Notes: generated by a model from the sequence alone, not told the origin. A stretch of DNA of 64,000 bases from Candidatus Aenigmatarchaeota archaeon (GCA_026397315.1 JAPLVC010000007.1:45450-109449), one strand, 5' to 3'. Positions 1 to 60,118 are shown, counted from the first letter of the stretch. Program-made: numbers and translations.

Positions 1-528
1 ATAAAGGATTACATCCAGACATACTCGCCGGACAAGGAAGAACAGAAATGGATAAAGGCGATAATAATGACTGAAAGCGGTTATGTCCATTGCAGCGGTT
101 CGACCGTGGGGGCGTTCGGCTTCATGCAGCTCATGGAAATCGCCGCGAGGGACGTGGGCATAAGCGACAGGTTCGACCCTGAGCAGAACATCGATGGCGG
201 CGTGAGATACTACAGGAAGCTCGTGCAAAAATACGAATCCTACGACGACAAATACGTGCTGGCTGTCGCCAGTTACAACTGCGGCAAGATAGGCACTCTC
301 GTGTCGCAGAACTGCGACGCGCAGAACATATACATCGGCTGCTGGGAAAAGGCCGTCAGGGAGTTCACGCGTGAGAAGGAGTGCCAGGGCAGCGGCGGCA
401 AGGAAACTTACAACTACGTGGACAGGGTAAAGACATGCGTGAAATATTACGAGCAAAACCCGGAATGCTACAACAGTCCGGGCACGGGCAGCTCGTGCCC
501 TAAAAGCAGTGACTGCGGAAACTGGTGA
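1..528 (+). CDS. Lytic transglycosylase (SLT domain) protein, 5'-truncated by window edge
   Basis: SLT catalytic motif region (TESGY...S...GA.G.MQLM) in ORF 67..528; the reading frame is open back to nt 1, so the gene starts upstream of the window. Confidence 0.6.
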   Translation: MKDYIQTYSPDKEEQKWIKAIIMTESGYVHCSGSTVGAFGFMQLMEIAARDVGISDRFDPEQNIDGGVRYYRKLVQKYESYDDKYVLAVASYNCGKIGTLVSQNCDAQNIYIGCWEKAVREFTREKECQGSGGKETYNYVDRVKTCVKYYEQNPECYNSPGTGSSCPKSSDCGNW

Positions 529-531
529 AAT

Positions 532-1314
532 ATGCTTAAAAAAATGAAAGGCGGCATAAGTGAATCGCCATGGACAATCTGGGCAGTCATAATATTCGCG
601 GCCGTCATCGTCGCTGGTTCATTTTTCCTCAATTCGTATTATATCGATTACGCGGCATTTCTGAAAACTCCGCCGGAAAGGCTCAAAGCGCTTGAAGCAA
701 CCAACGCCGTGCGCGGGTGCCTGCTTAACGGGAAGCCTTACGTGACGAAGGACTTTCTCGACGAGAACAGCGGCGAGGACATAGACGACCTGTGCGGCTT
801 CGAGGACCCGGGTACAGAAGCCGACGTCCTTGACACGCAAACCGGCCAGAAGTGGGGTCTGAGCTCGAGTCTGAGCAAAGCGGACCACTCGGTCTGGATT
901 CCGATTGCTTACACAGGTTTTCAGGAAATAACCGATGTCAATTACGCTTTAAGCGGAGAATATGTCATACATGCGAAGTGGCTAGGCGTCGGGGTGCTTA
1001 ACATAAAAGCCAACGACGTCATTTTGGAATTATATCCTTCGGCGCTTTACCCGGGCGGATCAAGCAAGCTTGAAAGCGTCACCTCTTCCAAAGTCAGGGA
1101 ATGGATAGAAAAGCTGGTTGATGCTGACAACCCCGAAGGCACGCAGAAGGCGGACCTGACAGGCATGAACATAATGGCGATAATCCCGTCAGAATACAGT
1201 CTCAAAGAATGCAGTTCGGTTGGCGACCTGCTTTCCCACGAGGCCTGCGTGAAAATGTTTACGGGGGTAAAAGAAATTCATTTAGGGAGACTGAACGTCG
1301 ATGTTACGCTCTAA
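532..1314 (+). CDS. Hypothetical membrane-anchored protein (one N-terminal TM helix)
   Basis: 260-aa ORF tightly packed between the SLT and M23 genes; hydrophobic N-terminus (WTIWAVIIFAAVIVAGSFFL); no recognisable domain. Confidence 0.45.
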   Translation: MLKKMKGGISESPWTIWAVIIFAAVIVAGSFFLNSYYIDYAAFLKTPPERLKALEATNAVRGCLLNGKPYVTKDFLDENSGEDIDDLCGFEDPGTEADVLDTQTGQKWGLSSSLSKADHSVWIPIAYTGFQEITDVNYALSGEYVIHAKWLGVGVLNIKANDVILELYPSALYPGGSSKLESVTSSKVREWIEKLVDADNPEGTQKADLTGMNIMAIIPSEYSLKECSSVGDLLSHEACVKMFTGVKEIHLGRLNVDVTL

Positions 1315-2332
1315 AAATAAAAAGGGGATAGCGGACTTTGCGTTGTTCGTCGTGATAGCGATAGCGGTCGTATCGCTCATACTCGTTGCCAGCTGGCTGG
1401 GAAAGGTGCTTGGCCAGGGTAGGCAGCTAGTCAAAGTCAAGGGAGTGGTGGACGTTTACGTCAACCTTGACGACAAAGGCAGCGAGTTCAGCTTTCTGGA
1501 AGCCAAAAATGGCGATTATGATTTCATGGAAATTCTCGGCGTCGTGGGATCCGGAGCCAAGATAGGAGGCGACCTTAAAGCCCAGATGGAAAATGTGGAA
1601 AAAAGCATCGAAAGGATAAAGAATTCCGACAAGAAAAATTTCTACATATCCGTCATAAGCCCGGAGGGTAAAGTGGTGTATGAGAAGAAAAGCGGCAATC
1701 CGCCGCTCGTCGTGGGAACGGGCGGAGAGGACATACTGCTAAAATGGCCGCTGGACGCCAGCAACTATGAGATAATATCGGGTTTCGGGTGGAGAAAAGA
1801 CCCATTCTCAGGCAAGGACTCGTTCCACGGCGGTATAGACATACCGGGAAATCTGGGAGACCCCGTTTACAGCGCAACGGACGGAACCGTATACAGGACG
1901 GTAAACAATGATGCGGATTTGGGCAATTTTGTCGTTATAAAATACACATCACAAAGGACGAACACGCCGTATTACGTTTATTACGGACACATGCAGGGCT
2001 TTTCCGTAAGAACTGGTGACAGTGTGAAGATCGGAGAGGAGATAGGGAAAGTTGGCTCCACCGGCAAATCACAGGGCCCGCACCTGCATTTCGAGATAAG
2101 AAAAGACAAAAACGGCGACGGCAATTTAGCGCCAGACGCAGAGTCGGTAAACCTCTGCCCGTATCTCACAGGCGCGTCAGGCGGCATTGTCGACTCAAAA
2201 ACTTGCATGAAAAAATGCCCGGTATACGAGAATCCGGACTCATGCGATTCTGATATGACGGTCGTCACGAACAGGTTTGACATACCTGTTCCGGGCGGAA
2301 AGAAAGGCTACGTGGAGCTGATGCTATGGTAA
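1301..2332 (+). CDS. M23 family metallopeptidase (LytM-like), N-terminal TM anchor
   Basis: M23 motifs HGGIDI...D, YYGHM and GSTG...GPHLHFEI; overlaps the upstream gene by 14 nt and the downstream gene by 7 nt (operon). Confidence 0.75.
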   Translation: MLRSKNKKGIADFALFVVIAIAVVSLILVASWLGKVLGQGRQLVKVKGVVDVYVNLDDKGSEFSFLEAKNGDYDFMEILGVVGSGAKIGGDLKAQMENVEKSIERIKNSDKKNFYISVISPEGKVVYEKKSGNPPLVVGTGGEDILLKWPLDASNYEIISGFGWRKDPFSGKDSFHGGIDIPGNLGDPVYSATDGTVYRTVNNDADLGNFVVIKYTSQRTNTPYYVYYGHMQGFSVRTGDSVKIGEEIGKVGSTGKSQGPHLHFEIRKDKNGDGNLAPDAESVNLCPYLTGASGGIVDSKTCMKKCPVYENPDSCDSDMTVVTNRFDIPVPGGKKGYVELMLW

Positions 2333-3492
2333 AATTCAAGGGCATGACGATAAACATCCTCAGCGTAGGCCTGATAATACTCGTTTCCGTGATTCTTTAT
2401 GCGTTCCTCAACCCGCTATCGCAGCCGCATTCGTCTGAATACGCGAAAACGGATATCTATGTCATGAAAAACGCCCTAGATTCGTCCAAAGTCTATTTGA
2501 GGGCGTCTTTCGATTATGCTGTTTACCAGGCGCTTTACGACGTTTCGAGAAAGGGAGGGTTTAGCGACGCCCAAAGCCAGTCCGCATACGCTAACGCTCT
2601 GGCGCCTGTCATATCATGCCAGAAAACCGACAAAAGAATCGGTGAGCCGGAAAAGATAATCGGCTGCGTTCCCGGCGAATACGGATGCCCAGACAGCGAC
2701 GGCAAAGATGCTTACATAAACGAAGGTTACCAGGTAGGCCTCTTGCAATTCCTGCTAAAAGACCTTAAATACGAACTTACCGTTGACTGCAAGTTTGGCA
2801 AGGGCAGCCTGGAAAAACTCAAGGAATTCCAGAAAGACAAAGGCCTTACTGAAAGCGGTTTCCTTGACGACGCCACGACGGAGAAGCTGAAAGAATCCTT
2901 TGCTTACGATAACTGCGGGGATTATTTTTACGGATGCACGAACAGTTTTTCTGCCGTATGGAGCACGGAACTCGCAGAAGACCAGTTCAAAAGTAACATC
3001 AAGAATGAGATCGTAAAAAACATGAACTCATACACGTCAAAAGGATACGTCTTCCTCGACCTTCCAATAACAGGTCTTCCGCAATACAAAACCGACAAGA
3101 TTACGATTTCCGAATCCGGGACTGGATTGAAAGTCTCGCTCAGCGGGGATAACATAAAAATATCAAAGAAAGATGAATATGAAGTCATTGACATAGCGTC
3201 ATCGTCCGACATGGAAAAAATATACGATATAGATGCCTTCGGCATTTACAGGAAAGCAAAAAGCGTATACAACGACATTAAAAGCAAAGGATGCGATGCC
3301 GCAAAAGACGAAACGAAAACTGAAGGCGGATTTAAAACTGAAGTGAAGATCGTGAGCAAGACGACGAACCCTGAATGCTCCGCTAAAGTCAGGGTCTCGG
3401 TGGTGGAAGAAAATCCTAAAAAAGTTCCTGTCTTCAACGGACGTTCCGTATCTTTCGAGCCGGTTAACATGATTTTAATGTTGAATTTGTAA
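2326..3492 (+). CDS. Membrane-anchored protein with peptidoglycan-binding (PG_binding_1-like) domain
   Basis: N-terminal TM helix; the segment DCKFGKGSLEKLKEFQKDKGLTESGFLDDATTEKLKE fits the PGBD consensus (FG..T...v..FQ...GL..dG..g..T...L). Confidence 0.5.
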   Translation: MVKFKGMTINILSVGLIILVSVILYAFLNPLSQPHSSEYAKTDIYVMKNALDSSKVYLRASFDYAVYQALYDVSRKGGFSDAQSQSAYANALAPVISCQKTDKRIGEPEKIIGCVPGEYGCPDSDGKDAYINEGYQVGLLQFLLKDLKYELTVDCKFGKGSLEKLKEFQKDKGLTESGFLDDATTEKLKESFAYDNCGDYFYGCTNSFSAVWSTELAEDQFKSNIKNEIVKNMNSYTSKGYVFLDLPITGLPQYKTDKITISESGTGLKVSLSGDNIKISKKDEYEVIDIASSSDMEKIYDIDAFGIYRKAKSVYNDIKSKGCDAAKDETKTEGGFKTEVKIVSKTTNPECSAKVRVSVVEENPKKVPVFNGRSVSFEPVNMILMLNL

Positions 3493-3655
3493 TGCAGCCA
3501 GCGCTGGGAACGTCCCGCGCATAGATTTGTTTTTCAACCACGTTTCAAACCTTTTAAAAGCGCCGAATTAATGATAAAATAGCCAGGCCAACTGGCGGAA
3601 ACAGGCAACGCATCATGGCAAAAAAGCGACGCGCATGACTTGGGAGGTGCTTAGC

Positions 3656-3982
3656 ATGGCAGAGGAAAACGCTGAGACAAGAAGCGAAGCGAAAGAGAGC
3701 AAATACAGGTTCAGAGAGAACGACAACGTGATATTCGTCGGGAGTAAGCCGACAATGTCATACGTGCTTGCAGTGATGACCCAGTTCTCCGGTGGGACGA
3801 ATGAAGTGCACATCAAGGCAAGGGGGCGTTCTATCTCGAGAGCGGTGGACGTCGTCGAAGTTGTGAAGAACAGGTTCGTCAACACGGCGAAGCACACGAT
3901 AGAGATAGGCACCGAGAAGATGCACGCGGAGAACAACATGGATATCAACGTGTCGACCATCGACATAAAGCTCGTGAAGTAA
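3656..3982 (+). CDS. albA: Chromatin protein Alba
   Basis: Strong similarity to Alba/Sso10b (NVIFVGSKPTMSYVLAVMTQF...HIKARGRSISRAVDVVEVVKNRF); GGAGGTG Shine-Dalgarno-like sequence precedes the internal ATG at 3656 in ORF 3635..3982. Confidence 0.8.
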   Translation: MAEENAETRSEAKESKYRFRENDNVIFVGSKPTMSYVLAVMTQFSGGTNEVHIKARGRSISRAVDVVEVVKNRFVNTAKHTIEIGTEKMHAENNMDINVSTIDIKLVK

Positions 3983-4289: not shown

Positions 4290-5414
4290 TCACTTTAAGA
4301 ACTTGTCTACCTGTTTCCTCGCGTGCTCCCTCTTCCTTGCGTGCTCGCGCAGAAACGCTTCCATCTTTTCCACGAGAATCTGCTTCAGTTCGCCTGAAAG
4401 CAGCTTGCCGGACTTGTAGTCGTCGTAAATCTGCTGCATCTTCTTGTCGTCGGGCTCGAATTGCGAGTAGAGATACTGGTAGGCGACGTCGATTTCCGGC
4501 ACGCCTCCTTTCTTGCGATGCTCCTCCAGCGTGTCTCGCCCTCCGGAGAAGGCGTATTTCATTATCTTGCTTTTTGCAGTGGCCGGGTCGTCCGTGAGGG
4601 CGATGTAGGAATACGGGTCCGAAGAGCTCATCTTCCCACCCTTGAGGCCCTTGATGAAAACATGATACGTCGACGATGGAAGCACGAAATTGTGCTCCTT
4701 CTCGAAGCGCGCCGCGATGTCCCTGCTTAGGCGTATGTGCGGGTCCTGGTCCGCGCCGACGGGCACGACGACGTGCCTGTAGCCGCCGAATTCAGGCAGC
4801 ATGGGATGGAGGATGTCCGCGACCTGCGTCATGACCGACATTACTTTTCCCGGCGTGATTTCGCCGTAAACGGCCTTCATCTCGTTGAACGTGACCTTCT
4901 TAGCGGCCATGCCGGACAGGCGGTAGAACGCGTTGGCTTTGTCCGGGTCTTTCGAGCGCGCGCTCTGGAAGTAGAAGTCGCAGTTCTTCGGGTCGAGCCC
5001 GAGAGCTATGTAATTGACCAGGTATTCGTTTATCGCGATTTCGCGCAGCTTATCCATGTCGTCTATGCGCATGTTGTATGCCTCGATGTCGGCGACGCAG
5101 ATGAACACCTTCGCTCCGAGCACTTTCTGATGGTAGATTATCTGCTCTGCCAGGATCTTGTGACCGAGATGGAACTTGCCCGAAGGCATAAGCCCCGTGA
5201 GCATGGCGTAACTCTCTTTTCTCGCGAGCGCGTCGAGAATCTTGTCGAAGTCGCGATGGCCGAACACGATGCCTCTTCTCATGAGTAAGTGAGGCTCCTT
5301 CATCCGCTTTAGTAACGGCTCGAACGGCTGGATGCCGAACTCGTCGCGCAGCTTGGCGTAATCCTTCACTTCCATTGATCCCCATGGATTTATTTCAGTT
5401 TTCATTTTCATCAC
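4290..5414 (-). CDS. trpS: Tryptophanyl-tRNA synthetase (archaeal/eukaryotic type)
   Basis: Class I motifs HLGH (GKFHLGHKILAEQ) and KMSSS; archaeal TrpRS-like length (374 aa). Confidence 0.85.
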   Translation of the reverse strand: MMKMKTEINPWGSMEVKDYAKLRDEFGIQPFEPLLKRMKEPHLLMRRGIVFGHRDFDKILDALARKESYAMLTGLMPSGKFHLGHKILAEQIIYHQKVLGAKVFICVADIEAYNMRIDDMDKLREIAINEYLVNYIALGLDPKNCDFYFQSARSKDPDKANAFYRLSGMAAKKVTFNEMKAVYGEITPGKVMSVMTQVADILHPMLPEFGGYRHVVVPVGADQDPHIRLSRDIAARFEKEHNFVLPSSTYHVFIKGLKGGKMSSSDPYSYIALTDDPATAKSKIMKYAFSGGRDTLEEHRKKGGVPEIDVAYQYLYSQFEPDDKKMQQIYDDYKSGKLLSGELKQILVEKMEAFLREHARKREHARKQVDKFLK

Positions 5415-11041: not shown

Positions 11042-12331
11042 CTAGCGCGTCACTTCTAGCTTGTTGACCGCTTCCAAAAGATCTTTGGCCTTCGCGTTCT
11101 TCTCGAAGTGCTGCCTGACCGGTTCTAGCAACTCGTTCAGGCGCAACGCCACTCCCGATTTCAGATCCATGGGGTGAATTTTGCCCTCGGCATATGCTTT
11201 CTCCAGTCCCGCGTAGCTTTCGAAAGACACGTCGCCTCCGAACTTCTCATGCCTTTTGATGTCAAAAGTCTTGAACTTCTCGAAGATTATGAACTTGCAG
11301 TATTCGAGGATCGGGTTTTCTGCAATCTGTTTCTCCGGGCAGTAAGCCTTGGAAATCTTGCGCTTCACTTCCTCCGGCGAATCGGTCATGAATATCGCGG
11401 AATCGGGCTTCGATTTGCTCATCTTCATGTCGATAGCACGTTCAGTCGCACTAATCACATGCTCAATTTTTATAGATCCGGGGAATAATTTATCATATAA
11501 TATTTTGATTTTTGAGCCATCTGGATAATTATACTCACTAATATTTTTTTTAATGAAGAATTTTTGTTTATCTACAACATCTTCCAAAAAGAACTCATCT
11601 GCTTCTCTATAATATTTAAACCTAGATGCTTTGTTGTAAATATCTAAATCTAGACTATATCTTAAACTAACTACAGGTTCTACTAATCCCATCATCATAT
11701 GGTGAGAGACGATGACCGGCTTCCAGTAGCCGAGCTTCGGGCCGATTTCGCGCGCGAGCACGTTGACCTTGCGCTGGTCCAGGCCGAGCTGGCATATGTC
11801 CGCCTTCAGATGAAAAATGTCCGCGGCCTGCATGCACGGGTAGAGAATCTGCGACGCCTGCTGCACGTCCGCGTCTTTCCGTCCCATTATCTGGCCGCAG
11901 CGGACGATTCTGTTGACAGTCGTGTTGCGCGCCACCTGCATGACCTTCTTCCAGTAGTCGTCGTCTTTCACGTGCCCTGAGGCCCAAACGAATTCTACGT
12001 TATCGGCGTCGAGGCCACACGACTTCCAGACCTCTATGAGGTATTTGCCTACCGTCTGTATGTTCTCGAGATTACCGCCCATCTTGTTGTTCGCCCAGCC
12101 GTGCCAGTCGGCAACCAGCATCTTGAACTTGCAGCCGGCGGAAGTCATTTTGTTTATGTTTATCGCCCGCAGTAGGCCCTGCGCTATGTGGACGTGCCCG
12201 CTCGGCTCGAAGCCATCATACGCTATCGGATGCTTTTTCTCCGCGAGCAGCGCCTTCAGCTCCTCAGGAGTGACTATCTCCCCGCCTTCGCCTACCTGCG
12301 AAACCAGCTCGAAGCGCTTTTCGACATCCAT
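11042..12331 (-). CDS. tyrS: Tyrosyl-tRNA synthetase (archaeal type) carrying an ~80-aa in-frame AT-rich insertion
   Basis: Close match to archaeal TyrRS (FEPSG...ADWH...QLGLDQRKVNVLARE...KMSKS...KFGGD...HPMDLK); 429 aa versus about 306-330 aa typical. Confidence 0.85.
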   Translation of the reverse strand: MDVEKRFELVSQVGEGGEIVTPEELKALLAEKKHPIAYDGFEPSGHVHIAQGLLRAININKMTSAGCKFKMLVADWHGWANNKMGGNLENIQTVGKYLIEVWKSCGLDADNVEFVWASGHVKDDDYWKKVMQVARNTTVNRIVRCGQIMGRKDADVQQASQILYPCMQAADIFHLKADICQLGLDQRKVNVLAREIGPKLGYWKPVIVSHHMMMGLVEPVVSLRYSLDLDIYNKASRFKYYREADEFFLEDVVDKQKFFIKKNISEYNYPDGSKIKILYDKLFPGSIKIEHVISATERAIDMKMSKSKPDSAIFMTDSPEEVKRKISKAYCPEKQIAENPILEYCKFIIFEKFKTFDIKRHEKFGGDVSFESYAGLEKAYAEGKIHPMDLKSGVALRLNELLEPVRQHFEKNAKAKDLLEAVNKLEVTR

Positions 12332-19617: not shown

Positions 19618-19728
19618 TGGACTCGTCGGGATTTGAACCCGAGGCCTCTTGGATGCGAACCAAGCGCTCTCTAGCGACTGAAGCAGGCGAACCTGCTTCC
19701 ATCGAAATTACCACTGAGCTACGAGCCC
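19618..19728 (-). tRNA. tRNA-Ala (anticodon CGC) with a 39-nt intron at a non-canonical position in the D-loop
   Basis: Minus-strand read: GGGCTCG-TA-GCTC-AGTGGTA-[intron ATTTCGATGGAAGCAGGTTCGCCTGCTTCAGTCGCTAGA]-GAGC-G-CTTGG-TTCGCAT-CCAAG-AGGCC-TCGGG-TTCAAAT-CCCGA-CGAGTCC-A. The G3:U70 Ala identity pair is present and there is no encoded CCA. The intron forms an 8-bp hairpin with a TTCG tetraloop. Confidence 0.75.
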
Positions 19729-19771: not shown

Positions 19772-20137
19772 ATGCCCGTTTTCGTAGTCCACGAGCATAA
19801 CGCTTCGCGCCTCCACTGGGACCTCCGCCTGGAGATGGACGGCGTGCTGAAATCGTGGGCCGTTCCGAAGGAGCCGCCGTTGGAAGCGAATGTCAAACGC
19901 CTCGCGATACAGGTGGATGACCACGCTCTTTCTTATGGGAAATTCGAAGGTGTCATTAAAGAAGGGTATGGTGCCGGCACCGTGAAAATCTGGGATAATG
20001 GAACGTATGAAATCGTGGACAAGAAACCTGATAAAATCGTTTTCAAGATTAGCGGCAGGAAGATGCGCGGGGAATACGTCCTGCTGAAATTCAAAAAAGC
20101 CGACGAAAAGGAATGGCTGCTTTTCAGGAAAGAATGA
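19772..20137 (+). CDS. LigD N-terminal domain (3'-phosphoesterase-like) stand-alone protein
   Basis: ASRLHWDLRLEMDGVLKSWAVPKEP...DHALSYGKFEG...GYGAGTVKIWDNGTY matches the LigD_N domain consensus. Confidence 0.6.
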   Translation: MPVFVVHEHNASRLHWDLRLEMDGVLKSWAVPKEPPLEANVKRLAIQVDDHALSYGKFEGVIKEGYGAGTVKIWDNGTYEIVDKKPDKIVFKISGRKMRGEYVLLKFKKADEKEWLLFRKE

Positions 20138-20183
20138 CAAAGTTGGTAAATACTTTTTCTAAAAATATCTGTTTTTAAAAAAA

Positions 20184-20648
20184 TTGATTGACTACATGTT
20201 TAAACATAGGTTATTATTACTACAATTCCAGAAATCATTAATGACCAAGATAATTTATCTCGACACCAACATCTATCTAGATTATTATTTTGATAGACAT
20301 GGATCTAAAAGAGCATTTGATATAATATTTTTTCGAGCACCAAATTGTGAATTCAAAATAGTTGTTTCAGATTGGGTTCTGCGAGAACTTGAACTTAATG
20401 GAATTGGTTCAAAAGAAATGAAAACACTTTTCAGTAGAATTTCTGAAAATAAAAAATTGGTTACAATTTTTACAGAAAAACCAAAGGACATAGACGATGC
20501 GAAAAAAATATCATCGGATCATTTTCAAGATCCATTACATGTGATTCTCGCTAAGAAGGGTGGCGCTGAAATATTAATAACAAGAAATGTACAAGATTTC
20601 AACTGTTGTAGGCATCTTTTAGATATCAAGTTTCCTGAAGATATTTGA
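20184..20648 (+). CDS. PIN-domain-like putative nuclease
   Basis: N-terminal IIYLDTNI and C-terminal AEILITRNVQDF resemble PIN signatures; AT-rich. Confidence 0.45.
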   Translation: MIDYMFKHRLLLLQFQKSLMTKIIYLDTNIYLDYYFDRHGSKRAFDIIFFRAPNCEFKIVVSDWVLRELELNGIGSKEMKTLFSRISENKKLVTIFTEKPKDIDDAKKISSDHFQDPLHVILAKKGGAEILITRNVQDFNCCRHLLDIKFPEDI

Positions 20649-21791
20649 TGTATCTTCCTTCGCAAATTCTTCAGCTATTTTTCTTCTTTCATCTTTCGTA
20701 GTCTTCTTCTCTTCAATTATTTTCATCAAAGTCCTGTATTTTTCAAATTCTTTAAACTCAGTTTCTTTCAATTCATCAACTTTGCACAGATCTCTCAAAT
20801 AAGAAACGTATTCAATCGCTAACCTTTCATTTATTATGAAATAAATATCAAGATATGATTTGAGCGTGTTTTTGTCATAACCAATTTTTAAAAGACTTTC
20901 AAAAAGATTATATGTGGTTATCATATCCCACACAATTCGCATAGTGTCTAGTATTTCTGTCCTCAATTCGTTTATTTCATCAGATTTCATAGTTTTTAGC
21001 ATGTAAATTGTAGTTGAAATAAAATCATTCAATATCTTTGCAGCATTTTCAGTTTCCTCATTTAATTTAAAATTAAATCCAATCTCCATTAGAATATCTC
21101 TTATTTTCAATTTGTTTTCATCATTTAATTCAATAATACCAAAATTTTTCTCAAATTCAAACTGTCTGAGATAGAGTAAATTTTTAGATTTTATATATTG
21201 TCCCTTTCTCATATACACCGAATTGTGATCTTTTTCTTTCTCAACTATTCTATTTATGCATTCGTTTATCTCACTCTCATTTTTAACGGACGTGTAACTA
21301 TAATCCTTTGTTGGGTCATATAATTTTAAGCAAAGTTCACCGAACCTGTACCAAACTAATGGTACATCTAGATTACATTCCTGTACTATATCTACAAGTA
21401 ATTTTTGAACTTGTGTTTTGTTAGGATAATAAGTCGTCTTCTCTTTCCAAGTTTCTCTAATTTTCATAAAAAGGAAATTTACTAAATTATCTTGTTCCGA
21501 CTTAATCGGTATTCCGAAAAGCGTTCCTGAATTTTTTTCGGGAGAACTTGTGCAAGATTTCAAAGTGAAAACTCTTTTGTTTCCTTCTGCTCTCTCAACA
21601 GCGATTCCGGATTCTTCTAGCATCTCCAAATATTTGCGCACACTATCCCATGTCGTTCCGGTTTCGCCGGCAACTTCATAAATAGATTTGGGGCCTTTTT
21701 TCAGGGATTCGATGACAGATTGAACAACTTCGCGGCTGGTCTTCTTGGCACTACCCCTGCCAGTTGTCATGTTAATAATATTGGTAACCAT
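20619..21791 (-). CDS. Hypothetical 390-aa protein with N-terminal winged HTH and long helical C-terminal region
   Basis: wHTH segment KSIYEVAGETGTTWDSVRKYLEMLEESGIAVERAEGNKRVFTL; the remainder is K/E/I/N-rich with no known motif; convergent with the PIN-like gene, overlapping it by 30 nt. Confidence 0.45.
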   Translation of the reverse strand: MVTNIINMTTGRGSAKKTSREVVQSVIESLKKGPKSIYEVAGETGTTWDSVRKYLEMLEESGIAVERAEGNKRVFTLKSCTSSPEKNSGTLFGIPIKSEQDNLVNFLFMKIRETWKEKTTYYPNKTQVQKLLVDIVQECNLDVPLVWYRFGELCLKLYDPTKDYSYTSVKNESEINECINRIVEKEKDHNSVYMRKGQYIKSKNLLYLRQFEFEKNFGIIELNDENKLKIRDILMEIGFNFKLNEETENAAKILNDFISTTIYMLKTMKSDEINELRTEILDTMRIVWDMITTYNLFESLLKIGYDKNTLKSYLDIYFIINERLAIEYVSYLRDLCKVDELKETEFKEFEKYRTLMKIIEEKKTTKDERRKIAEEFAKEDTSNIFRKLDI

Positions 21792-21907
21792 ATTTAAATA
21801 TCACCATATCAGCATAGACTAATTTTAAATAAGTAGAATGAATAAAAGCTTTATATACTTAATTGCAAATACTATATAGTTATTTGAGTATAGTAATGGA
21901 GGTAAAA

Positions 21908-22180
21908 ATGAGAAGAATCGTTAAAAGAGTAGTGGATGGCGATACTTTGGAAGTTAATCGTAATATAAATGGGACTAGATTTGTAAGACTCGCCAATGTA
22001 AACGCACCCGAAAGGCATCAATTTGGTGGAAGAACAGCGACAAAAACATTAACCGGCCTTGTAGGCGGTAGATCGATAACACTAACTCCTGTAGCAAGGG
22101 ACGTTTATGGAAGAGTAGTCGCCGAAGTCAGATGTGGAAGACAAAGTATCAATCGTAAAATGAAGAAAAGAGGATATTAA
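21908..22180 (+). CDS. Short thermonuclease (SNase)-like protein
   Basis: VVDGDTLEV...VRLANVNAPE resembles the SNase catalytic core (DGDT...R...D.PE); GGAGGT RBS precedes the internal ATG of ORF 21863..22180. Confidence 0.5.
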   Translation: MRRIVKRVVDGDTLEVNRNINGTRFVRLANVNAPERHQFGGRTATKTLTGLVGGRSITLTPVARDVYGRVVAEVRCGRQSINRKMKKRGY

Positions 22181-22202
22181 AAATATATCAAGGGAGGAAA
22201 TC

Positions 22203-22355
22203 ATGATAAAAATAATCGCTATAGCAACAGGACTCGCAGCTGTACTTGGACTTGGTAGCATTCTTCTTTCAAGTCTAGGCAATAATACTTGGCCTGTATT
22301 TTTGTTTGCAGCAATATTTGTTTTTTTAATCGGTATACTCGTTAAAAAAATATAA
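22203..22355 (+). CDS. 50-aa membrane peptide (MIKIIAIATGLAAVLGLGSILLSSLGNNTWPVFLFAAIFVFLIGILVKKI)
   Basis: Manual translation; GGGAGGA RBS 6 nt upstream; two hydrophobic helices; below the ORF-track cutoff. Confidence 0.35.
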   Translation: MIKIIAIATGLAAVLGLGSILLSSLGNNTWPVFLFAAIFVFLIGILVKKI

Positions 22356-22440
22356 TAAGATAAAAAACACCCATTGAAAAACATTTTGTTAGATTTGATA
22401 ATTAAATCGTATTTTAACCAGAACGACAAAATATTTTCTT

Positions 22441-22977
22441 ATGATTGACATTTACACGCTCGTCGAGGCCGTGTGGATTCTGTGGCCGGCGTACGGGGCG
22501 AACGGCCTGTGCATGCTCGCGCATGGGAAGCGGGTCATCGATGGCGGACGCATGTGGCGCGGCAAACAGATTTTTGGCCCGGGCAAGACATGGGAAGGTC
22601 TGCTGTTCGGCGTGTTCGTTGGCGCGCTCGTCGGGACGATTCAGATGCTCGCTTACCCGTTCCTGCCATGGGAGCTTTCCCCGGTCGCGCTTTCGCTGGT
22701 CCCCATGACGCCGCTCACGGGCGCGCTCATAGGCCTGGGCGCGCTGCTCGGCGACATAGGCGGCTCGTTCATAAAGCGACGCCTGGGCATCGCGCGAGGC
22801 AAACCAGCGCCAATCCTGGACCAGCTCGATTTCATAGCGGGAATGCTGATTGTGCTGGCGTTCGTGTATCCGCTGAAATGGGAATGGGTCGTGATATTGG
22901 CGATAATGACGCCGGTCTTCCACCTGCTGGCGAACAGGATAGCCTACATACTGAAGCTCAAGAACGTGCCTTATTAG
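22441..22977 (+). CDS. carS: CDP-archaeol synthase
   Basis: DUF46/CarS-like signature ANGLCMLAHGKRVIDGG...GPGKTWEGLLFG in a 178-aa membrane protein. Confidence 0.7.
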   Translation: MIDIYTLVEAVWILWPAYGANGLCMLAHGKRVIDGGRMWRGKQIFGPGKTWEGLLFGVFVGALVGTIQMLAYPFLPWELSPVALSLVPMTPLTGALIGLGALLGDIGGSFIKRRLGIARGKPAPILDQLDFIAGMLIVLAFVYPLKWEWVVILAIMTPVFHLLANRIAYILKLKNVPY

Positions 22978-30385: not shown

Positions 30386-30522
30386 GTATTAATTTTGCCG
30401 CCGGCCGATAAAAAGCCCGCCGCATATGACGCATCGAAAACTTTAAATTGCCCGGCCCGATAATTCTCTCAAGCAAATTAGACTTGAGACGATAGAATAA
30501 GTTTTATGCTTGGGGTAAACGC

Positions 30523-31971
30523 ATGGACAGGCTGAAAAAGAAAGTGGCGCTCACATTCGACGACGTCCTTTTAGTGCCCAGAAGGTCGGCTGTGCTACCT
30601 AAAGACGTGGACACTCGTACGAGACTCACGAAGCGCATAGGCCTGAACATACCCATCATGAGCGCCGCGATGGACACGGTGACGGAATCCCAGATGGCCA
30701 TCATGCTTGCCAAAGAGGGCGGCATGGGCATCATACATAAGAACATGTCTGTTGAGGAGCAGGCGTCCGAGGTCGAGCATGTCAAGAAGTTCGAGTCCGG
30801 CGTCATACGCAACCCCATCACGCTCAGACCCGAAGACACGATGGGCAAGGTCAGAGAGATGATAAACAAGACCGGCATCGGCAGCTTCGTCGTAGTGGAG
30901 AAGAACAAAGTGGTCGGCATCCTCACCAGCAGGGACATGTGGTTCAGGAACGACCCGAACGAGAAGGTGCGCGACGTAATGACGAAGAAGCCGATAACCA
31001 TACAAAAGCCGGATACGGATTACGCCATCATGATAATGAACCAGCACAAGATAGAGAAGCTTCCCATCGTTGATGCTGCCGGGCGGCTGAAAGGCCTGAT
31101 AACCATAGCCGACCTCAAGAAACGCGAGGAGTTTCCGCACTCTGCGAAAGATCGCGAGGGACGATTGATTGTGGGCGGCGCGATAGGACCTTTCGACATG
31201 AAGCGCGCGGAAGCGCTGGTGAACGCAGGCGTAGACTTGATAGCCGTCGATACGGCGCACGGCCACACGGAGAACGTCATAAAGACTGTCAGACAGCTGA
31301 AAAAGGCATATGATATTGACATTATAGCGGGCAACGTCGCCACAAGGGAAGGGACGCTTGACCTGATATCAGCCGGAGCCGACGCCATCAAGGTCGGCAT
31401 GGGACCCGGTTCGATATGCACGACCAGGATAATCGCGGGCATAGGCGTTCCGCAGATAACCGCGGTGCAGGAATGCGCCAAGGCTGCGGAAAGACACAAG
31501 ATTGCAGTCATAGCGGACGGCGGCATAAAGAACTCGGGCGATATTGCGAAAGCGATTGCAGCAGGCGCGCGCGTCATCATGATAGGCTCGCTTTTCGCCG
31601 GCACCGAGGAAGCGCCTGGCGAAGTCGTCTACCGCGGCGGCAGGAAATACAAGAAATACAGGGGCATGGGCTCCATCAATGCGATGAAGCTCGGCTCGAA
31701 AGACCGTTACGCGCAAGCCGACGCTAGCAAATTCGTGCCAGAAGGCGTGGAAGGCATGGTGCCTTACAGGGGGACTGTTTCTGAAATCGTCTTCCAGATG
31801 GTCGGTGGCCTGCGCTCTTCGATGGGCTACTGCGGATGCGCGAACATAGACGAGATGCGCAGGAAAGCGAGGTTCATAAGGATAACCAAAGAGGGCATCA
31901 AGGAGTCGCACCCGCACGACGTCATAATCACGGACGAGGCGCCGAACTACTGGAGCGGCCCCGAGGTCTGA
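30523..31971 (+). CDS. guaB: IMP dehydrogenase (with CBS pair)
   Basis: GPGSICTTR active-site loop, CBS domains, 482 aa. Confidence 0.9.
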   Translation: MDRLKKKVALTFDDVLLVPRRSAVLPKDVDTRTRLTKRIGLNIPIMSAAMDTVTESQMAIMLAKEGGMGIIHKNMSVEEQASEVEHVKKFESGVIRNPITLRPEDTMGKVREMINKTGIGSFVVVEKNKVVGILTSRDMWFRNDPNEKVRDVMTKKPITIQKPDTDYAIMIMNQHKIEKLPIVDAAGRLKGLITIADLKKREEFPHSAKDREGRLIVGGAIGPFDMKRAEALVNAGVDLIAVDTAHGHTENVIKTVRQLKKAYDIDIIAGNVATREGTLDLISAGADAIKVGMGPGSICTTRIIAGIGVPQITAVQECAKAAERHKIAVIADGGIKNSGDIAKAIAAGARVIMIGSLFAGTEEAPGEVVYRGGRKYKKYRGMGSINAMKLGSKDRYAQADASKFVPEGVEGMVPYRGTVSEIVFQMVGGLRSSMGYCGCANIDEMRRKARFIRITKEGIKESHPHDVIITDEAPNYWSGPEV

Positions 31972-32003
31972 TTGCTTTTATTGCCGGAAGGAAATGTATT
32001 AAT

Positions 32004-32816
32004 ATGACATCACCAAAGGAAACCTTTCTCGACGAGAAGATTCTGAAAATGCTCGCAGGCAGCGGCAGGCCAATGAAGGCCGCGCAGCTCATGCTCAAAG
32101 ACGGCGAAATAGACTGCATGCAGGACTACGCGAACACCGTCTCGATAAAGCGGCTTGGATACAACGACCACGGCCCGGTCCACATGAGAAAGGTCGTCAT
32201 AAACGCGCTGGCCATGCTGGACCTGCTCAACAAGGCGGGCATAAAGCTGAACAGCGAGAAGGAAGGCTCTGGCTCGTTCGAAGACAGCAAAATCGCAGTT
32301 ATGCTGGCATCGTTCCTGCACGACATAGGCATGTGCGTCGGGCGAGAAAAGCATGAAAACGTTTCCGCCATGTTCGCCCTTCCTGTCATTGACAAGCTTC
32401 TTTCGCAGGTATACAAGGATGACGTCGAGAAGCGCATCGCCGTCCGTTCGATGGTCATCGAGGGGATTCTCGGCCACATGGGCGGCCAGAGAATAGAGTC
32501 GCTCGAGGCTGGGGTGATTCTTATAGCGGATGGCTGCGACATGGAAAAGGGCCGCGCGCGCATCCCCATGAAAATCGGAGAGTCGAAAGAGGGCAAGATG
32601 GGCGACATCCACAAGTATTCTTCGTCATCGATAGAGAAAGTCACGATAGACAGGGGCGATAAACGCGCGATAAGGATAACGATCGAGATGGACTCGCCCG
32701 TTGGTTTCTTCCAAGTGGAAGAAGTTTTGCTGAAAAAGATAAACTCAAGTCCCGTGAAGCCGTACATCGAACTTTTTGCCGGCGTCACGGGCCAGAAGAT
32801 GAAGTGCTATCTCTAG
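32004..32816 (+). CDS. HD-domain phosphohydrolase
   Basis: H...HD motif (LASFLHDIGM); start set to the ATG after the guaB stop. Confidence 0.55.
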   Translation: MTSPKETFLDEKILKMLAGSGRPMKAAQLMLKDGEIDCMQDYANTVSIKRLGYNDHGPVHMRKVVINALAMLDLLNKAGIKLNSEKEGSGSFEDSKIAVMLASFLHDIGMCVGREKHENVSAMFALPVIDKLLSQVYKDDVEKRIAVRSMVIEGILGHMGGQRIESLEAGVILIADGCDMEKGRARIPMKIGESKEGKMGDIHKYSSSSIEKVTIDRGDKRAIRITIEMDSPVGFFQVEEVLLKKINSSPVKPYIELFAGVTGQKMKCYL

Positions 32817-32870
32817 CGATTGGCAGTTTAAACGGCTCTTTCAAGGTTATTAAACCTGTTTACAAACTAA

Positions 32871-34175
<1,305 letters not shown>

Positions 34176-34288
34176 AAAGTAGTTTTTGTTCTTTTCATTT
34201 CATTAAATCACGATACTATCGCAATATTATCCGGTGTATCCCGAATAAAATCTGAGTGTATTAAATAGGATGCTGACAATATTTAATC

Positions 34289-46689: not shown

Positions 46690-46741
46690 ACTGGAAACAA
46701 GTTATAAACAGTATAGTACATACATTAAAGAGCGATAGCTT

Positions 46742-48451
46742 ATGATTTCAAATGAACCATTACCTGAAGGGCAGCAATACGACGTCATAATCGTGACCGG
46801 CGATGCGTACGCAGACCACCCGCTATGCGGCGCGGCCGTGATTGCGCGCGTCCTTGAAGACAAAGGTTATACCGTCGGCATAATAGAGACGCCCGACTGG
46901 CTCAGGGACAGCGAGTTCACCAAGCTCGGCGAGCCGCGCCTTTTCTTCGGCATAACAGCCGGCGCGATGGACAGCATGATTGACAACTACACGCCGCTGA
47001 TAAAGGAGCGCGAGGACGACGAGCACAGGCGCTACATCCCGCGCAAGCCCGACCGCGCGATAATAGTCTACGCGAACATGATACGGCGCAACTACAAGAA
47101 AACGCCGCTCGTTCTCGGAGGCGTCGAGTCGTCGCTTCGCCGCTTCGCGCATTTCGATTACTGGAGCAACAAACTCAGGCGTTCGCTTCTGCCCGAGTCG
47201 CGCGCGGACATACTGGCTTACGGGAACGCCGAGCATGCAGTCGTCGAGATAGCGAGACGCATCGAAAGCGGTAAGCCGCTCGACGGCATCGAAGGGACGT
47301 GCGTCGCCAGAAACGTCGCGCCTCACGGTTTCAAGACCATGCCCAGTTTCGACGAAGTCTCAGCAGACAAGAAAAAATTCTGCAGGATGCAAATCATGAT
47401 AAACAATGACGACTATCTTGCGCAGAAAACCGGGGACAAGTTCATCCTGCAATACAAGAGCCATCGTTATACGACGGAGGAACTGGACCATGTTTACGAA
47501 CTGCCATATTCGCGCGACATTCCCGAAAATGCAGATTATCTGAGGGGCATGCAGTTCAGCGTCGTGACGCACAGGGGTTGCATAGGCAACTGCAGCTTCT
47601 GTTCGATAGCGCTGCATCAGGGCACGCGCATCGTCTCGCGCTCGGAGGCTTCGATACTGCGCGAGATTGCTTTGCTGACACAACACAAGGATTTCAAGGG
47701 ATATATCGACGACCTCGGCGGACCGTCGGCGAACATGTACGGCATGGACTGCCGCGCATGCAGACGCAATTGCATGGTATGCGACCACCTTGACCGCAGC
47801 CATGCGAAGCTTATCATGCTCATGGAGAAAGCGAGACAGATACCCGGCGTGAAAAAGATATTCGTGCGCTCGGGCATACGCTACGACCTTGCCCTCGAAT
47901 CGAGGCAATACATAAAAGAGATATCGAAGTATCACGTATCAGGCTATCTTAAAATCGCTCCGGAGCACTGCAGCCCGCACGTTTTGAAGCTCATGAACAA
48001 GCATCTTCCTGGAGCGCTCGACAAATTCGTCTCCATTTTCAAAGAGATAAACAATTCCACAGGTCAGACGCTGAAATACTACGTCATAGCCGCCCATCCG
48101 GGCAGCACGCAGAAGGAAAACGAGGAGCTCAGGAAATTCATAGAGAAGGTCGGCAGAGACGCTATAGTACAGACTTTCACTCCCACGCCGATGAGCCTGA
48201 GCACCTGCATGTATTATACTGGCATGGACCCGAAGACGTTGCAGCCGGTATACGTGCCGCGCGGCTTCAGGGACAAGAAGGAACAAAAGACGGAACTGCT
48301 GGACGCGATGCGCGGCTTCACGAAACGCAGGCAGGACCACAAGTCTGGGCACGGCTTTCGCCAAGGCCCGCAGAGAGGCGGCGGCCAGAAGTTTCAGGTG
48401 CGCCGCAAAGGACGCGGCCGCCATGGCGGCAGGACCAATAAAATGTTTTAA
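46742..48451 (+). CDS. YgiQ-family (UPF0313) radical SAM protein
   Basis: N-terminal YgiQ domain (DVIIVTGDAYADHP) and CIGNCSFCS radical SAM cluster; 569 aa with a basic tail. Confidence 0.75.
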   Translation: MISNEPLPEGQQYDVIIVTGDAYADHPLCGAAVIARVLEDKGYTVGIIETPDWLRDSEFTKLGEPRLFFGITAGAMDSMIDNYTPLIKEREDDEHRRYIPRKPDRAIIVYANMIRRNYKKTPLVLGGVESSLRRFAHFDYWSNKLRRSLLPESRADILAYGNAEHAVVEIARRIESGKPLDGIEGTCVARNVAPHGFKTMPSFDEVSADKKKFCRMQIMINNDDYLAQKTGDKFILQYKSHRYTTEELDHVYELPYSRDIPENADYLRGMQFSVVTHRGCIGNCSFCSIALHQGTRIVSRSEASILREIALLTQHKDFKGYIDDLGGPSANMYGMDCRACRRNCMVCDHLDRSHAKLIMLMEKARQIPGVKKIFVRSGIRYDLALESRQYIKEISKYHVSGYLKIAPEHCSPHVLKLMNKHLPGALDKFVSIFKEINNSTGQTLKYYVIAAHPGSTQKENEELRKFIEKVGRDAIVQTFTPTPMSLSTCMYYTGMDPKTLQPVYVPRGFRDKKEQKTELLDAMRGFTKRRQDHKSGHGFRQGPQRGGGQKFQVRRKGRGRHGGRTNKMF

Positions 48452-48499
48452 AACCGCGAACCGAATTAGGAATATCAAAACCCTTTTGTATGGTGTTTT

Positions 48500-49813: not shown

Positions 49814-50655
49814 CAGCCAGGATAATGGACGGCAGGAGGCTTTCGACCAGGATAATTTCAGATCTCAAGAAGAAGGTCGGGATTTTGTCGAAGAAAGGCA
49901 TCGTCCCGAGGCTGGATATCATTCTTGTCGGAGAGGACAACGCCTCGAAAATCTACGTGAGTAACAAGATACGCACATCAGAGCAAATCGGGATAAAAGG
50001 CGAACTGCACAAGTTCCCAGAGAAAACCAGCAAGGAGAAAATAATCAGGGAGATAAAGAAGCTCAATGCGAACGAGAAAGTCCACGGCATACTGGTCCAG
50101 CTGCCGCTGCCGCAGCATCTTGACGAGCAGGAAATAGTGGATAAGATAGAGCCTTCCAAAGACGTCGACGGCCTCACGACATACAGCATAGGCAGGCTCA
50201 CAACTGGAAACGCCAACTTCGAGTCGTGCACGCCGAAAGGCATAATCAGGCTCATTGAAAACGAAAAGATAAAGATCGAGGGAAGAAACGCTGTCGTGAT
50301 CGGCAGGAGCAATATAGTGGGCAAGCCCATTTCGCTCATGCTGCTCAGGCGAAACGCGACAGTCACGATATGCCACTCGAAAACAAAGCAGCTTCAGGAG
50401 CACACGAAAAACGCCGACATAATAATCGCGGCCGTGGGCAGGGCCAATTTCCTGAAGGAAGCGATGGTCAAGAAAGGAGCTATCGTGATTGACGTGGGTA
50501 TGAACCGCGACGGAGGCAAAATAGCAGGCGACGTGGATTTCGATAAAGTAAAATTCAAAGCCTCTTACATCACACCAGTTCCTGGCGGCGTCGGTCCCAT
50601 GACGGTCGCGATGCTCATGGAGAACACGCTGAAGGCGGCTAGGGCAAAACTCTGA
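49810..50655 (+). CDS. folD: Methylenetetrahydrofolate dehydrogenase/cyclohydrolase
   Basis: FolD motifs (ILVGEDNASKIYV, PLPQHL, GRSNIVGKP, PVPGGVGPMT); overlaps purD by 4 nt. Confidence 0.9.
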   Translation: MTARIMDGRRLSTRIISDLKKKVGILSKKGIVPRLDIILVGEDNASKIYVSNKIRTSEQIGIKGELHKFPEKTSKEKIIREIKKLNANEKVHGILVQLPLPQHLDEQEIVDKIEPSKDVDGLTTYSIGRLTTGNANFESCTPKGIIRLIENEKIKIEGRNAVVIGRSNIVGKPISLMLLRRNATVTICHSKTKQLQEHTKNADIIIAAVGRANFLKEAMVKKGAIVIDVGMNRDGGKIAGDVDFDKVKFKASYITPVPGGVGPMTVAMLMENTLKAARAKL

Positions 50656-51054
50656 TTTTAGCTGTAGATATCTTTTAAATTATTTTACTCGTTAAAAGTG
50701 AAGATGGGAAGAAATAACAACAGGATGTTTGTAAACAACGTTCCTAAACCAGAGGAACCACGTGCTACTGAATCCCCAGATTCGCATACATAGCGGGTTA
50801 GAGTGGCCCATAAAGGAATAGGCAGAGCATTGGCGGAACAGACTAATGGTGAGTATAATCCCGGAGATAACACGGTTACAACCGGTTATATAACCAAAGA
50901 AAAGATGCAACTTCTCAATAAGTATTACGGACCTGAAATAAGAAAATACAAGTTACAGATGTGATTGTTTTCAAATTATCGGAAAATTAATTTTTAAAAG
51001 ACAAAAACAATTTGGAATTATGTATAATAATTATTTGTGAGCGGGAGGGTTAAC

Positions 51055-53240: not shown

Positions 53241-53247
53241 AAGATTA

Positions 53248-56049: not shown

Positions 56050-56073
56050 TATGGCTCAGAATAAATATAAAAC

Positions 56074-57746: not shown

Positions 57747-57747
57747 A

Positions 57748-60102: not shown

Positions 60103-60118
60103 AGCGAAAAAAGGTGTC

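Follow-up and report, generated by a model that had tools for sequence, protein, structure and literature searches.

A conserved Aenigmarchaeota operon encodes prepilin-like murein hydrolases and a putative pilin-fold carrier of murein-directed modules

Introduction

Woldo/Danwoldo of Halogranum salarium combine bacterial-type Peptidase_M23 and PG_binding_1 domains in an archaeon whose own cell is murein-less, and are deployed outside that cell against bacteria (Strock et al. 2025, PMC12352652). Here we analyze an operon with the same kinds of domain, which encodes an SLT lytic transglycosylase, an M23 zinc metallopeptidase and a PG_binding_1 protein and whose distal half occupies positions 1-3492 of a 64,000-nucleotide stretch from a Candidatus Aenigmatarchaeota archaeon (GCA_026397315.1, JAPLVC010000007.1:45450-109449; the whole stretch is referred to below as the window). 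Each Woldo/Danwoldo protein is a single polypeptide with catalytic and tandem binding domains, carries a Tat signal, is released into the supernatant and has a patchy distribution after recent transfer, whereas the catalytic and binding modules of the present system lie on separate proteins of a conserved operon, open with prepilin-like N-termini and occur lineage-wide in Aenigmarchaeota. The survey that accompanied Woldo/Danwoldo required both domain types in one protein and considered Sec and Tat signals only (PMC12352652). In the window SLT, M23 and PG_binding_1 are on three proteins, and only some relatives of the PG_binding_1 protein unite the binding domain with an enzyme (Amidase_3, VanY or GDSL) in one polypeptide, so a survey with these limits would miss most of the system described here.

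Murein lytic transglycosylase domains have also been reported in DPANN archaea, where SLT genes were first noted in a few genomes and then as giant extracellular proteins (PMC8204110, PMC9723730). The giant SLT/GH23 proteins of Woesearchaeota and Pacearchaeota have been read as devices for attachment to, or attack on, bacterial walls (Castelle et al. 2015, 2021, PMC8204110; Vigneron et al. 2022, PMC9723730). Those proteins (fam00969, up to ~3000 amino acids (aa)) are single and come from other DPANN phyla, whereas the SLT protein examined here has 335 aa, belongs to Aenigmarchaeota and has M23 and PG-binding partners encoded in its operon. The DPANN literature lists only unannotated lineage-specific families for Aenigmarchaeota themselves (PMC8204110), and the main comparative-genomics paper on the group mentions neither peptidoglycan nor murein, M23 or lytic enzymes (PMC8407114).

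The closest parallels to the way in which these proteins may be displayed are the modular pilins PilB and PilC of S. sanguinis (Raynaud et al. 2021, PMC8179133) and the GspK/GspI/GspJ tip of the type II secretion system (PDB 3ci0), which resemble the proteins described below in starting with a class III signal and a hydrophobic helix and, as far as our model of one of them goes, in having a small pilin fold that bears a grafted module. In GspK a domain is inserted within the pilin fold, much as the PG-binding domain appears to be in our model of the PG_binding_1 protein, open reading frame (ORF) D, and the C-terminal enzyme modules of ORF D relatives are placed like the vWA module of PilB. The modular pilins differ in being bacterial and in carrying mostly adhesin or lectin modules, and they have no sequence-level similarity to the present proteins; the likeness is structural and extends to ORF D only. 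No pilin carrying a murein hydrolase is mentioned in the literature on archaeal and modular pilins that we examined. Class III signals in archaea are also found on proteins other than pilins, namely the substrate-binding proteins of bindosomes (bioRxiv 10.64898/2026.04.22.720090), which resemble the present system in that functional proteins bear a prepilin-type signal, have a helix at the N-terminus and are believed to sit on a type-IV-filament-like base encoded elsewhere in the genome. Bindosome cargo consists of solute-binding proteins encoded beside ABC transporters, whereas here murein-degrading and murein-binding modules are encoded with small pilin-like genes, and the 2026 survey of archaeal type IV filaments and class III cargo in which bindosomes are treated mentions neither peptidoglycan nor hydrolases (bioRxiv 10.64898/2026.04.22.720090).

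SLT or M23 enzymes encoded in a surface-appendage operon are familiar from FlgJ, VirB1 and the lytic transglycosylase genes of pilus operons. Those enzymes open the producer's own sacculus for assembly of the machine; since an archaeon lacks a sacculus, the operon enzymes must have a foreign substrate. Archaeal anti-murein enzymes, modular pilins and the bindosome are thus already known, and what is new is their combination in a conserved operon. We found no description of the Aenigmarchaeota operon, of prepilin-type signals on these hydrolases or of a pilin-fold carrier with exchangeable murein modules, in a literature coverage that is incomplete and leaves an earlier description possible.

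Murein-directed domains and their active sites

ORF calling at positions 1-3492 returned the four co-directional + strand ORFs of the preliminary description of this DNA (ORFs A to D, Table 1) in dense packing, with overlaps of 14 nucleotides (nt) between ORFs B and C and of 7 nt between ORFs C and D. The three domain assignments made in that description were borne out by Pfam profiles. The ORF A fragment matched SLT (PF01464) with an E-value of 3.7e-16 and 59.2 bits (cut-off 21.3), and the complete 335-aa protein reached 57.4 bits against the same profile; ORF C matched Peptidase_M23 (PF01551) with an E-value of 5.5e-27 and 94.2 bits (cut-off 28.7); and ORF D matched PG_binding_1 (PF01471) with an E-value of 7.9e-8 and 32.8 bits (cut-off 23), the domain agreeing with the profile threshold and with a three-helix fold. 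Membrane anchoring, which had also been proposed, accords with the sequences, every complete protein opening with a basic stretch followed by a hydrophobic helix. In NCBIfam the SLT protein gave an MltF-type domain match and ORF C gave domain-level matches to MepM, ShyA and ShyC, all of them far under the equivalog cut-offs; the two proteins are therefore members of their domain families and not orthologues of any named bacterial enzyme.

The catalytic residues of both enzymes are preserved. The SLT motifs TES, GFMQ and SYNCG can be read in the translation, and six orthologues, the most distant at 29% identity, all share E185, S186, G197, A198, G200, Q203, Y252, N253 and G255. ORF C is built from a prepilin-like N-terminus, a conserved N-terminal domain, the M23 domain at aa 175-270, a Cys-containing tail and a conserved C-terminal strand, and its residues H176, D180, H230, H261 and H263 are invariant in 28/28 aligned M23-family sequences. 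Approximately 27 homologues of this protein are full-length, and the three that bear organism names are all from Aenigmarchaeota. Invariance of the SLT and M23 catalytic residues is the pattern of competent enzymes under purifying selection and not of degenerate LytM-type regulators, and both enzymes look catalytically active. By analogy with their families, the SLT protein would cut the glycan strands between N-acetylmuramic acid (MurNAc) and N-acetylglucosamine, and the M23 protein would cleave the peptide cross-links of murein.

ORF B, which lies between the SLT and M23 genes in all relatives, belongs to no Pfam or NCBIfam family. It has 10 close homologues, and a hidden Markov model built from it recovers an orthologue at the same operon position in distant loci. 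A likeness of its aa 101-150 to the M23 catalytic region was considered and, at an hhalign probability of 10%, was not substantiated.

Prepilin-type N-termini

The archaeal class III (prepilin or pre-archaellin) signal takes the form of a short basic leader, a Lys/Arg-Gly/Ala pair and then a hydrophobic helix. The three operon ORFs that are complete in the window begin in this way, with a short basic leader ending in Lys/Arg-Gly/Ala and ~20 uncharged hydrophobic residues after it. The motif, written [KR][GA], is conserved where the remaining sequence is not. It stands at the helix boundary in 26/27 full-length M23-family proteins and in 12 of the 13 ORF B proteins, where G7 is invariant and K6 nearly so, one sequence having N-G; it is likewise present in all p35 (4/4), p58 (7/7) and ORF D (7/7) orthologues. 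Among the listed diverged representatives of the ORF D scaffold family, motif and helix start occur together in 125/144. Applied to the ORFs of the window, the [KR][GA] rule selects 3/3 complete operon ORFs and only 2/70 others, a selection with a hypergeometric chance of ~1.6e-4, or 0.018 when the comparison is restricted to ORFs that have a hydrophobic segment at the N-terminus.

The preliminary description, which had listed the hydrolase domains, missed the main feature of the block, that its products are proteins with prepilin-type signals and, for ORF D, a modeled pilin fold. Such signals together with the modeled pilin fold suggest that, instead of being simply secreted, the hydrolases are displayed on a scaffold that is type-IV-filament-like or tethered to the membrane.

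A putative pilin-fold carrier with exchangeable murein modules

An AlphaFold2 model of ORF D, computed from a 24-sequence alignment, had a mean predicted local distance difference test score (pLDDT) of 73.8, with most 10-residue blocks of residues 210-388 at 76-92. In this model ORF D looks like a pilin fold into which the PG-binding domain has been inserted after the long N-terminal helix, in the manner of a minor pseudopilin. Profile searches gave no sequence-level match between ORF D and known pilin families, and a sequence search of the ORF D scaffold (A9) against the PDB returned chance matches only, so that the resemblance to pilins, as modeled, is one of structure alone.

A profile search with ORF D orthologues uncovered three size classes on a common scaffold: ~285 aa without an insert, ~380-406 aa with PG_binding_1, and ~600-623 aa with PG_binding_1 and a C-terminal enzyme. 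According to Pfam these enzymes are Amidase_3 (4e-45), VanY (2e-36) and GDSL/SGNH (3.6e-8), and in one related contig (L011) the amidase version takes the place of ORF D in the operon. When the insert-free scaffold was used for an exhaustive profile search, 267 clusters (50% identity) were collected at E <=1e-3, of which 177 reached E <=1e-10, with lengths of 146-1203 aa. In the 99 scaffold representatives of at least 320 aa, the Pfam modules were SLT (13), PG_binding_1 (6), Amidase_3 (3), GDSL (2), one each of M23, YkuD, Peptidase_M15_4 and SLT_2, and single PKD, fn3 and M64 domains. Two operons (L012 and L013) encode a stand-alone SLT protein as well as a D::SLT fusion. The recognizable cargo of the scaffold thus appears, from these domain matches, to be nearly all murein-directed. 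At least five enzyme classes for different bonds of MurNAc/D-Ala peptidoglycan on one pilin-like carrier are hard to explain unless the substrate is bacterial murein. The preliminary description had offered repurposing for an archaeal wall polymer as one possibility, which finds no support in these modules, since the SLT, M23, Amidase_3, VanY/M15, YkuD and PG_binding_1 domains of the relatives all belong to the MurNAc/D-Ala chemistry of murein.

Strand-like C-termini are conserved in three consecutive proteins of the operon (KG.VELVLW at the end of the M23 protein, IHLGRL.VDV in ORF B and SFEPVS..F in ORF D). Given this shared ending, the M23 catalytic domain may sit inserted in a scaffold that is closed by its last strand, as the PG-binding domain does in the ORF D model.

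Operon structure and conservation

The suggestion that the operon continues upstream of the window proved correct. An exact-match contig, L001, reaches 8.7 kb upstream (window position = L001 position - 8700), completes the N-terminus of the SLT protein and adds five to six further small membrane or pilin-like genes. Same-strand genes of 193, 61, 36-39, 143 and 91 aa precede the SLT gene, and a 57-aa gene lies farther upstream, with a divergent 973-aa gene without a Pfam family in between. Across L001 and the window, nine successive + strand genes are separated by intergenic gaps of -14 to 50 nt, and a TTTAAATA box is found 23 nt upstream of the first of them, a pilin-like gene. Archaeal promoters and terminators have recognizable signals, an oligo-T run being a type of archaeal transcription terminator, and the T-run behind ORF D is likely to be such a terminator and to mark the 3' end of the operon. 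Gap sizes, box and T-run are consistent with a single archaeal transcription unit. We conclude that positions 1-3492 make up the distal half of a conserved ~6-kb operon with as many as eleven genes, whose products are, in order, small subunits of 35, 58, ~100, ~140 and ~180 aa, followed by SLT, ORF B, M23 and ORF D.

Table 1. Coordinates of the operon features (window numbering unless L001 is named)
Feature	Position	Strand	Remarks
Complete SLT gene	L001 8221-9228 = window -479..528	+	335 aa; L001 adds the missing 160 N-terminal residues
ORF A, 3' part of SLT gene	1..528	+	175 codons; 5' part beyond window start
Catalytic Glu-Ser codons of SLT	73..78	+	E25-S26 of the fragment = E185-S186 of the full protein
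ORF B	532..1314	+	260 aa; likelier start ATG at 544 (MKG...)
Lys-Gly of class III signal-like motif, ORF B	547..552	+	leader MLKKMKG, then GISESPWTIWAVIIF; directly before hydrophobic helix
ORF C, M23 (LytM-type) zinc metallopeptidase	1301..2332	+	343 aa
Lys-Gly of class III signal-like motif, M23	1322..1327	+	leader MLRSKNKKG, then IADFALFVVIAIAVV
HxxxD zinc-binding motif, M23	1826..1840	+	H176...D180 (HGGID); invariant columns
H230, M23	1988-1990	+	invariant
HxH motif, M23	2081..2089	+	H261-L-H263 (HLH); invariant columns
ORF D	2326..3492	+	388 aa; predicted pilin-fold scaffold with PG_binding_1 insert after long N-terminal helix
Lys-Gly of class III signal-like motif, ORF D	2338..2343	+	leader MVKFKG, then MTINILSVGLIIL
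PG_binding_1 domain of ORF D	2725..2889	+	aa 134-188
T-run TTGTTTTTC	3528..3536	+	36 nt past the ORF D stop codon; read in the sequence
Alba gene	3635-3982		downstream of ORF D and the T-run

Related loci were collected from independent assemblies (NCBI, JGI, ENA and Logan). A first scan of genome contigs with ORF B found nothing, and a second with ORF D found three loci. When JGI metagenomes were scanned with a still more distant ORF D branch, L012, L013 and L014 showed the order SLT-B-M23-D-Alba, and L018 and L019 parts of it. Altogether this order, complete or ended by the contig, is present in L001, L002, L004-L014, L018 and L019, and where a contig reaches further the upstream small genes are also kept. 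The full arrangement runs from ScpB (opposite strand) through genes of ~50, ~100, (~140), ~35, ~58 and ~180 aa to SLT, ORF B, M23, ORF D and Alba. It is found in L002, L004, L005 and L009, in L008 from the first small gene onward, and also in L006 (5' end beyond the contig), L007, L011 and L010, the last of these on the 1.1-Mb contig CAVSBQ010000002.1. The M23 protein encoded in these recurring contigs is only 31-35% identical to that of the window. Wherever a fetched contig continues beyond the D gene, Alba adjoins the block, and ScpB stands at the far end in five loci.

The surroundings of the block are archaeal, as the preliminary description had stated. The window encodes Alba, GatD/GatE, deoxyhypusine synthase, a beta-CASP RNase, CDP-archaeol synthase, a UbiA-type prenyltransferase, TBP, aIF-2B and Kae1, and further a class I W/Y aminoacyl-tRNA synthetase, PurL, PurH, IMPDH and PurA. 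At 0.47-0.51, the block has the same GC content as the window. Proteins 100% identical to M23, ORF B and ORF D are recorded in NCBI, from a 166-kb contig, as 'MAG: ... [Candidatus Aenigmarchaeota archaeon]' (MAG, metagenome-assembled genome), and every homologue that bears an organism name is from Aenigmarchaeota. With archaeal neighbors, matching GC content and an identical protein ascribed to Aenigmarchaeota, the contig is neither bacterial nor chimeric.

Synteny that spans the lineage down to ~30% protein identity, together with native GC content, implies that the operon is a vertically inherited unit and not a recent import. Horizontal acquisition, as first proposed, therefore holds in a deep sense only, in that the domains are of bacterial type, and fails as recent insertion. 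Outside the archaeal family the next-best M23 matches are bacterial and cover the domain only, the closest being FlgJ-like proteins with a rod-binding domain (PF10135), so an ultimately bacterial origin of the domains is likely. The point estimate of a neighbor-joining tree for the M23 domain places the 24 archaeal sequences in a single clade; across 200 bootstraps the best archaeal clade is free of bacterial sequences in 200/200, and all 24 are together in only 17/200. The tree is only weakly informative, and we regard a single ancient acquisition as likely.

Some further genes adjoin the operon. In this sub-lineage only, a divergent gene for a ~1000-aa protein separates the cluster's first small gene from the pilin-like genes (L001 3530-6451 (-), L007 1243-4290, L011 2133-5195). 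The protein carries a hydrophobic segment at each terminus and belongs to no family in Pfam or NCBIfam; it may be an adhesin or S-layer-like and functionally linked to the operon. Beyond ScpB there is a 781-aa NosD/beta-helix protein in L004 and L005 and a 722-aa protein without a Pfam match in L002. Upstream of the window, L001 6485-6760 and 6811-7242 encode two Cys-rich proteins of ~90-140 aa (alignment A8), in which the N-terminal MRxS(L/I)(E/L)(I/L)VV...LTIFGTG is far better conserved than the rest and LPxxW and at least six Cys are also common. This pair is without the K/R-G site of the other operon proteins and has no match in Pfam and chance matches only in the PDB; it could represent the major filament subunit or an unrelated membrane component.

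Other features of the window

A low-GC island at 20000-22450 (25-40% GC against ~50% elsewhere) lies ~300 bp from tRNA-Ala(CGC) at 19619-19693(-) and holds a PIN_3-domain ORF at 20184-20648 (+) and a 390-aa ORF with an N-terminal DUF7342 at 20619-21791 (-). No flanking direct repeats were found around it; it is probably a small acquired toxin or defense islet. The complement of de novo purine genes is unusually rich for DPANN, with GuaB, PurA, PurD, FolD, PurH, PurL and PurQ in the window at 30500-34200 and 46700-60900 and PurS, PurM, PurB, PurC and PurE just past it (L022 1-9500), and by this gene set the Aenigmarchaeote does not look nucleotide-auxotrophic. Two class I W/Y-type aminoacyl-tRNA synthetase genes occur within 7 kb, at 4290-5414 (-), followed by a TrpB-like PALP gene, and at 11042-12331 (-). 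The latter is a Pfam tRNA-synt_1b member, and the orthologue of the former is likewise annotated in L007 and L011; the two are presumably TrpRS and TyrRS. At 54730-56049 (+), a gene with Mur_ligase_M and Mur_ligase_C domains might be taken for a ligase of murein or pseudomurein peptides. Considered as a wall-synthesis gene, it was rejected: it is FolC (TIGR01499, 345 bits against a cut-off of 162.65), and its neighbors are folate and purine genes.

Discussion

We propose that the operon encodes an extracellular, cell- or filament-tethered, pilin-like apparatus for breaching murein that is aimed at bacteria, and we hold this with a probability of roughly 0.6. In the putative mechanism the proteins would be exported by their class III signals, a [KR][GA] pair and a hydrophobic helix, whose conservation is documented above and which prepilin peptidase would cleave. 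The N-terminal helix would then hold the proteins in the membrane, or FlaI/FlaJ-type machinery encoded elsewhere would build a short pilus or pseudopilus from them, in which, by analogy with the GspI/J/K tip complexes, the large modular subunits would be exposed at the tip. The 35-aa and 58-aa proteins, of which little beyond a helix would be left once cleaved, may form a Tad/Epd-like shaft, as suggested by the Epd pilins that are devoid of a globular domain (bioRxiv 10.64898/2026.04.22.720090). On contact with a bacterium, PG_binding_1 would dock on murein, the SLT protein, through the active site identified here, would cut glycan strands, and the M23 protein, through its own, would cut cross-links; relatives would add an amidase, a D-Ala-D-Ala carboxypeptidase, a YkuD module or an SGNH esterase. 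The resulting local breach of the sacculus could serve attachment, penetration, exchange or feeding on a bacterial partner or prey. A bolder form of this proposal, which we put forward tentatively and regard as possible, is that Aenigmarchaeota as a phylum wield a type-IV-filament 'drill' whose minor subunits are murein hydrolases and binders on an interchangeable pilin-fold carrier, and use it to attach to bacterial hosts and open their walls.

Several observations weigh against the proposed apparatus. The positive-inside rule would likewise lead one to expect a basic residue ahead of a membrane helix, and the [KR][GA] pair is present in only 3/7 SLT and 4/7 p180 family proteins. Neither the full proteins nor the isolated N-termini match any model for pilins or class III signals in Pfam or NCBIfam (Pilin_N, Class_IIIsignal, archaeal flagellin N-terminal-like) at E-values up to 10; the only matches were to generic membrane helices. 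The pilin fold comes from one AlphaFold2 model of moderate confidence, for ORF D only; the model of ORF B was poor and fold searches with it gave no match. Nor did hhalign relate the operon families to one another as paralogs: comparisons of B with D and with M23, of SLT with D, and of M23 and p180 each with the D scaffold were all negative. No gene for a prepilin peptidase, filament ATPase or platform protein was found among the ~45 larger window ORFs scanned, in the +/-10 kb flanks of the fetched loci or in the 10 kb past the far end of the window. FlaI and FlaJ are encoded in most Aenigmarchaeota MAGs (PMC8407114). We infer enzyme activity, signal cleavage, the filament and the association of Aenigmarchaeota with bacteria from sequence, and every DPANN archaeon cultivated to date has an archaeal host (PMC11291902).

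Absence of filament genes from the regions scanned would also fit membrane-anchored ectoenzymes, signal-anchored or processed, that form no filament, leave living cells alone and digest free peptidoglycan debris, from which a metabolically limited archaeon could draw amino acids and amino sugars. Such scavenging of necromass is suited just as well by the domains and their intact active sites, VanY and amidase modules would release alanine and peptides, and peptidoglycan of dead bacteria has been proposed as a nutrient for other DPANN (PMC11537232). We nevertheless consider this explanation unlikely, because in none of the fetched loci is a gene for muropeptide transport or catabolism linked to the operon, because simple ectoenzymes have no need of the strictly conserved tiny pilin-like subunits or of the pilin fold modeled for ORF D, and because tethering to the cell is inefficient on insoluble debris unless there is contact. 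Another reading is that the hydrolases are diffusible weapons, released to kill competitors at a distance as Woldo/Danwoldo of Halogranum salarium are. Secreted archaeal M23 and PG_binding_1 proteins do kill bacteria (PMC12352652), and the same domain families are present here, but the N-termini are long uncharged hydrophobic helices that follow [KR][GA], the pattern expected of class III signals. Moreover, catalytic and binding domains on separate polypeptides would part if released, and the operon is lineage-wide and syntenic, whereas peptidoglycan hydrolases of the bacteriocin-like kind have a patchy distribution and frequently lie on small contigs; release as free weapons is accordingly improbable in our judgment.

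The same lineage-wide inheritance is what would be expected if the enzymes were autolysins that remodel a murein-like or pseudomurein-like polymer of Aenigmarchaeota themselves during growth, division or the passage of surface structures. The operon is core and vertically inherited, as bacterial autolysins are, and it starts beside ScpB, a chromosome segregation gene, in the five loci mentioned and always ends beside Alba. Pseudomurein, however, contains neither MurNAc nor D-amino acids, so SLT, Amidase_3 and VanY would be without a substrate there. No mur, mraY or murG gene is present in any fetched flank, the sole Mur-ligase-family gene of the window being FolC; S-layer genes are reported for Aenigmarchaeota (PMC8407114), and pseudomurein is described as confined to Methanobacteriales and Methanopyrales (PMC10117817, PMC11915815). 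A role in the archaeon's own wall is for these reasons highly improbable. Finally, the SLT, M23 and PG_binding_1 families are overwhelmingly bacterial, which, with the bacterial next-best matches of the M23 domain, could point to a mis-assembled or mis-binned bacterial fragment or to a very recent transfer. To this we attach next to no weight, for such an artefact is refuted by the recurrence of the operon beside Alba, and in five loci also ScpB, in independent assemblies; its GC content matches the surroundings, its genes overlap and share one contig with archaeal-context neighbors, and no bacterial intruder entered the best archaeal M23 clade in any bootstrap.

The type-IV-filament 'drill' of the bolder proposal would, if it exists, be the first enzyme-bearing archaeal pilus. 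Enzymes on a pilin carrier extend two ideas, that of archaeal peptidoglycan hydrolases as anti-bacterial tools and that of functionalized type IV filaments such as bindosomes and modular pilins, and systems of this type are missed by surveys confined to Sec/Tat signals and single-polypeptide hydrolases. No member of Aenigmarchaeota has been cultivated, and the suspicion of bacterial hosts has so far come only from lone SLT genes of other DPANN phyla. A lineage-conserved operon of prepilin-like surface proteins with swappable, almost exclusively murein-specific modules is a testable marker of contact-dependent interaction across domains. It makes the question of the hosts of Aenigmarchaeota experimentally approachable and, if the bolder proposal is true, would be the first molecular signature of a whole DPANN lineage living on bacteria and not on archaea.

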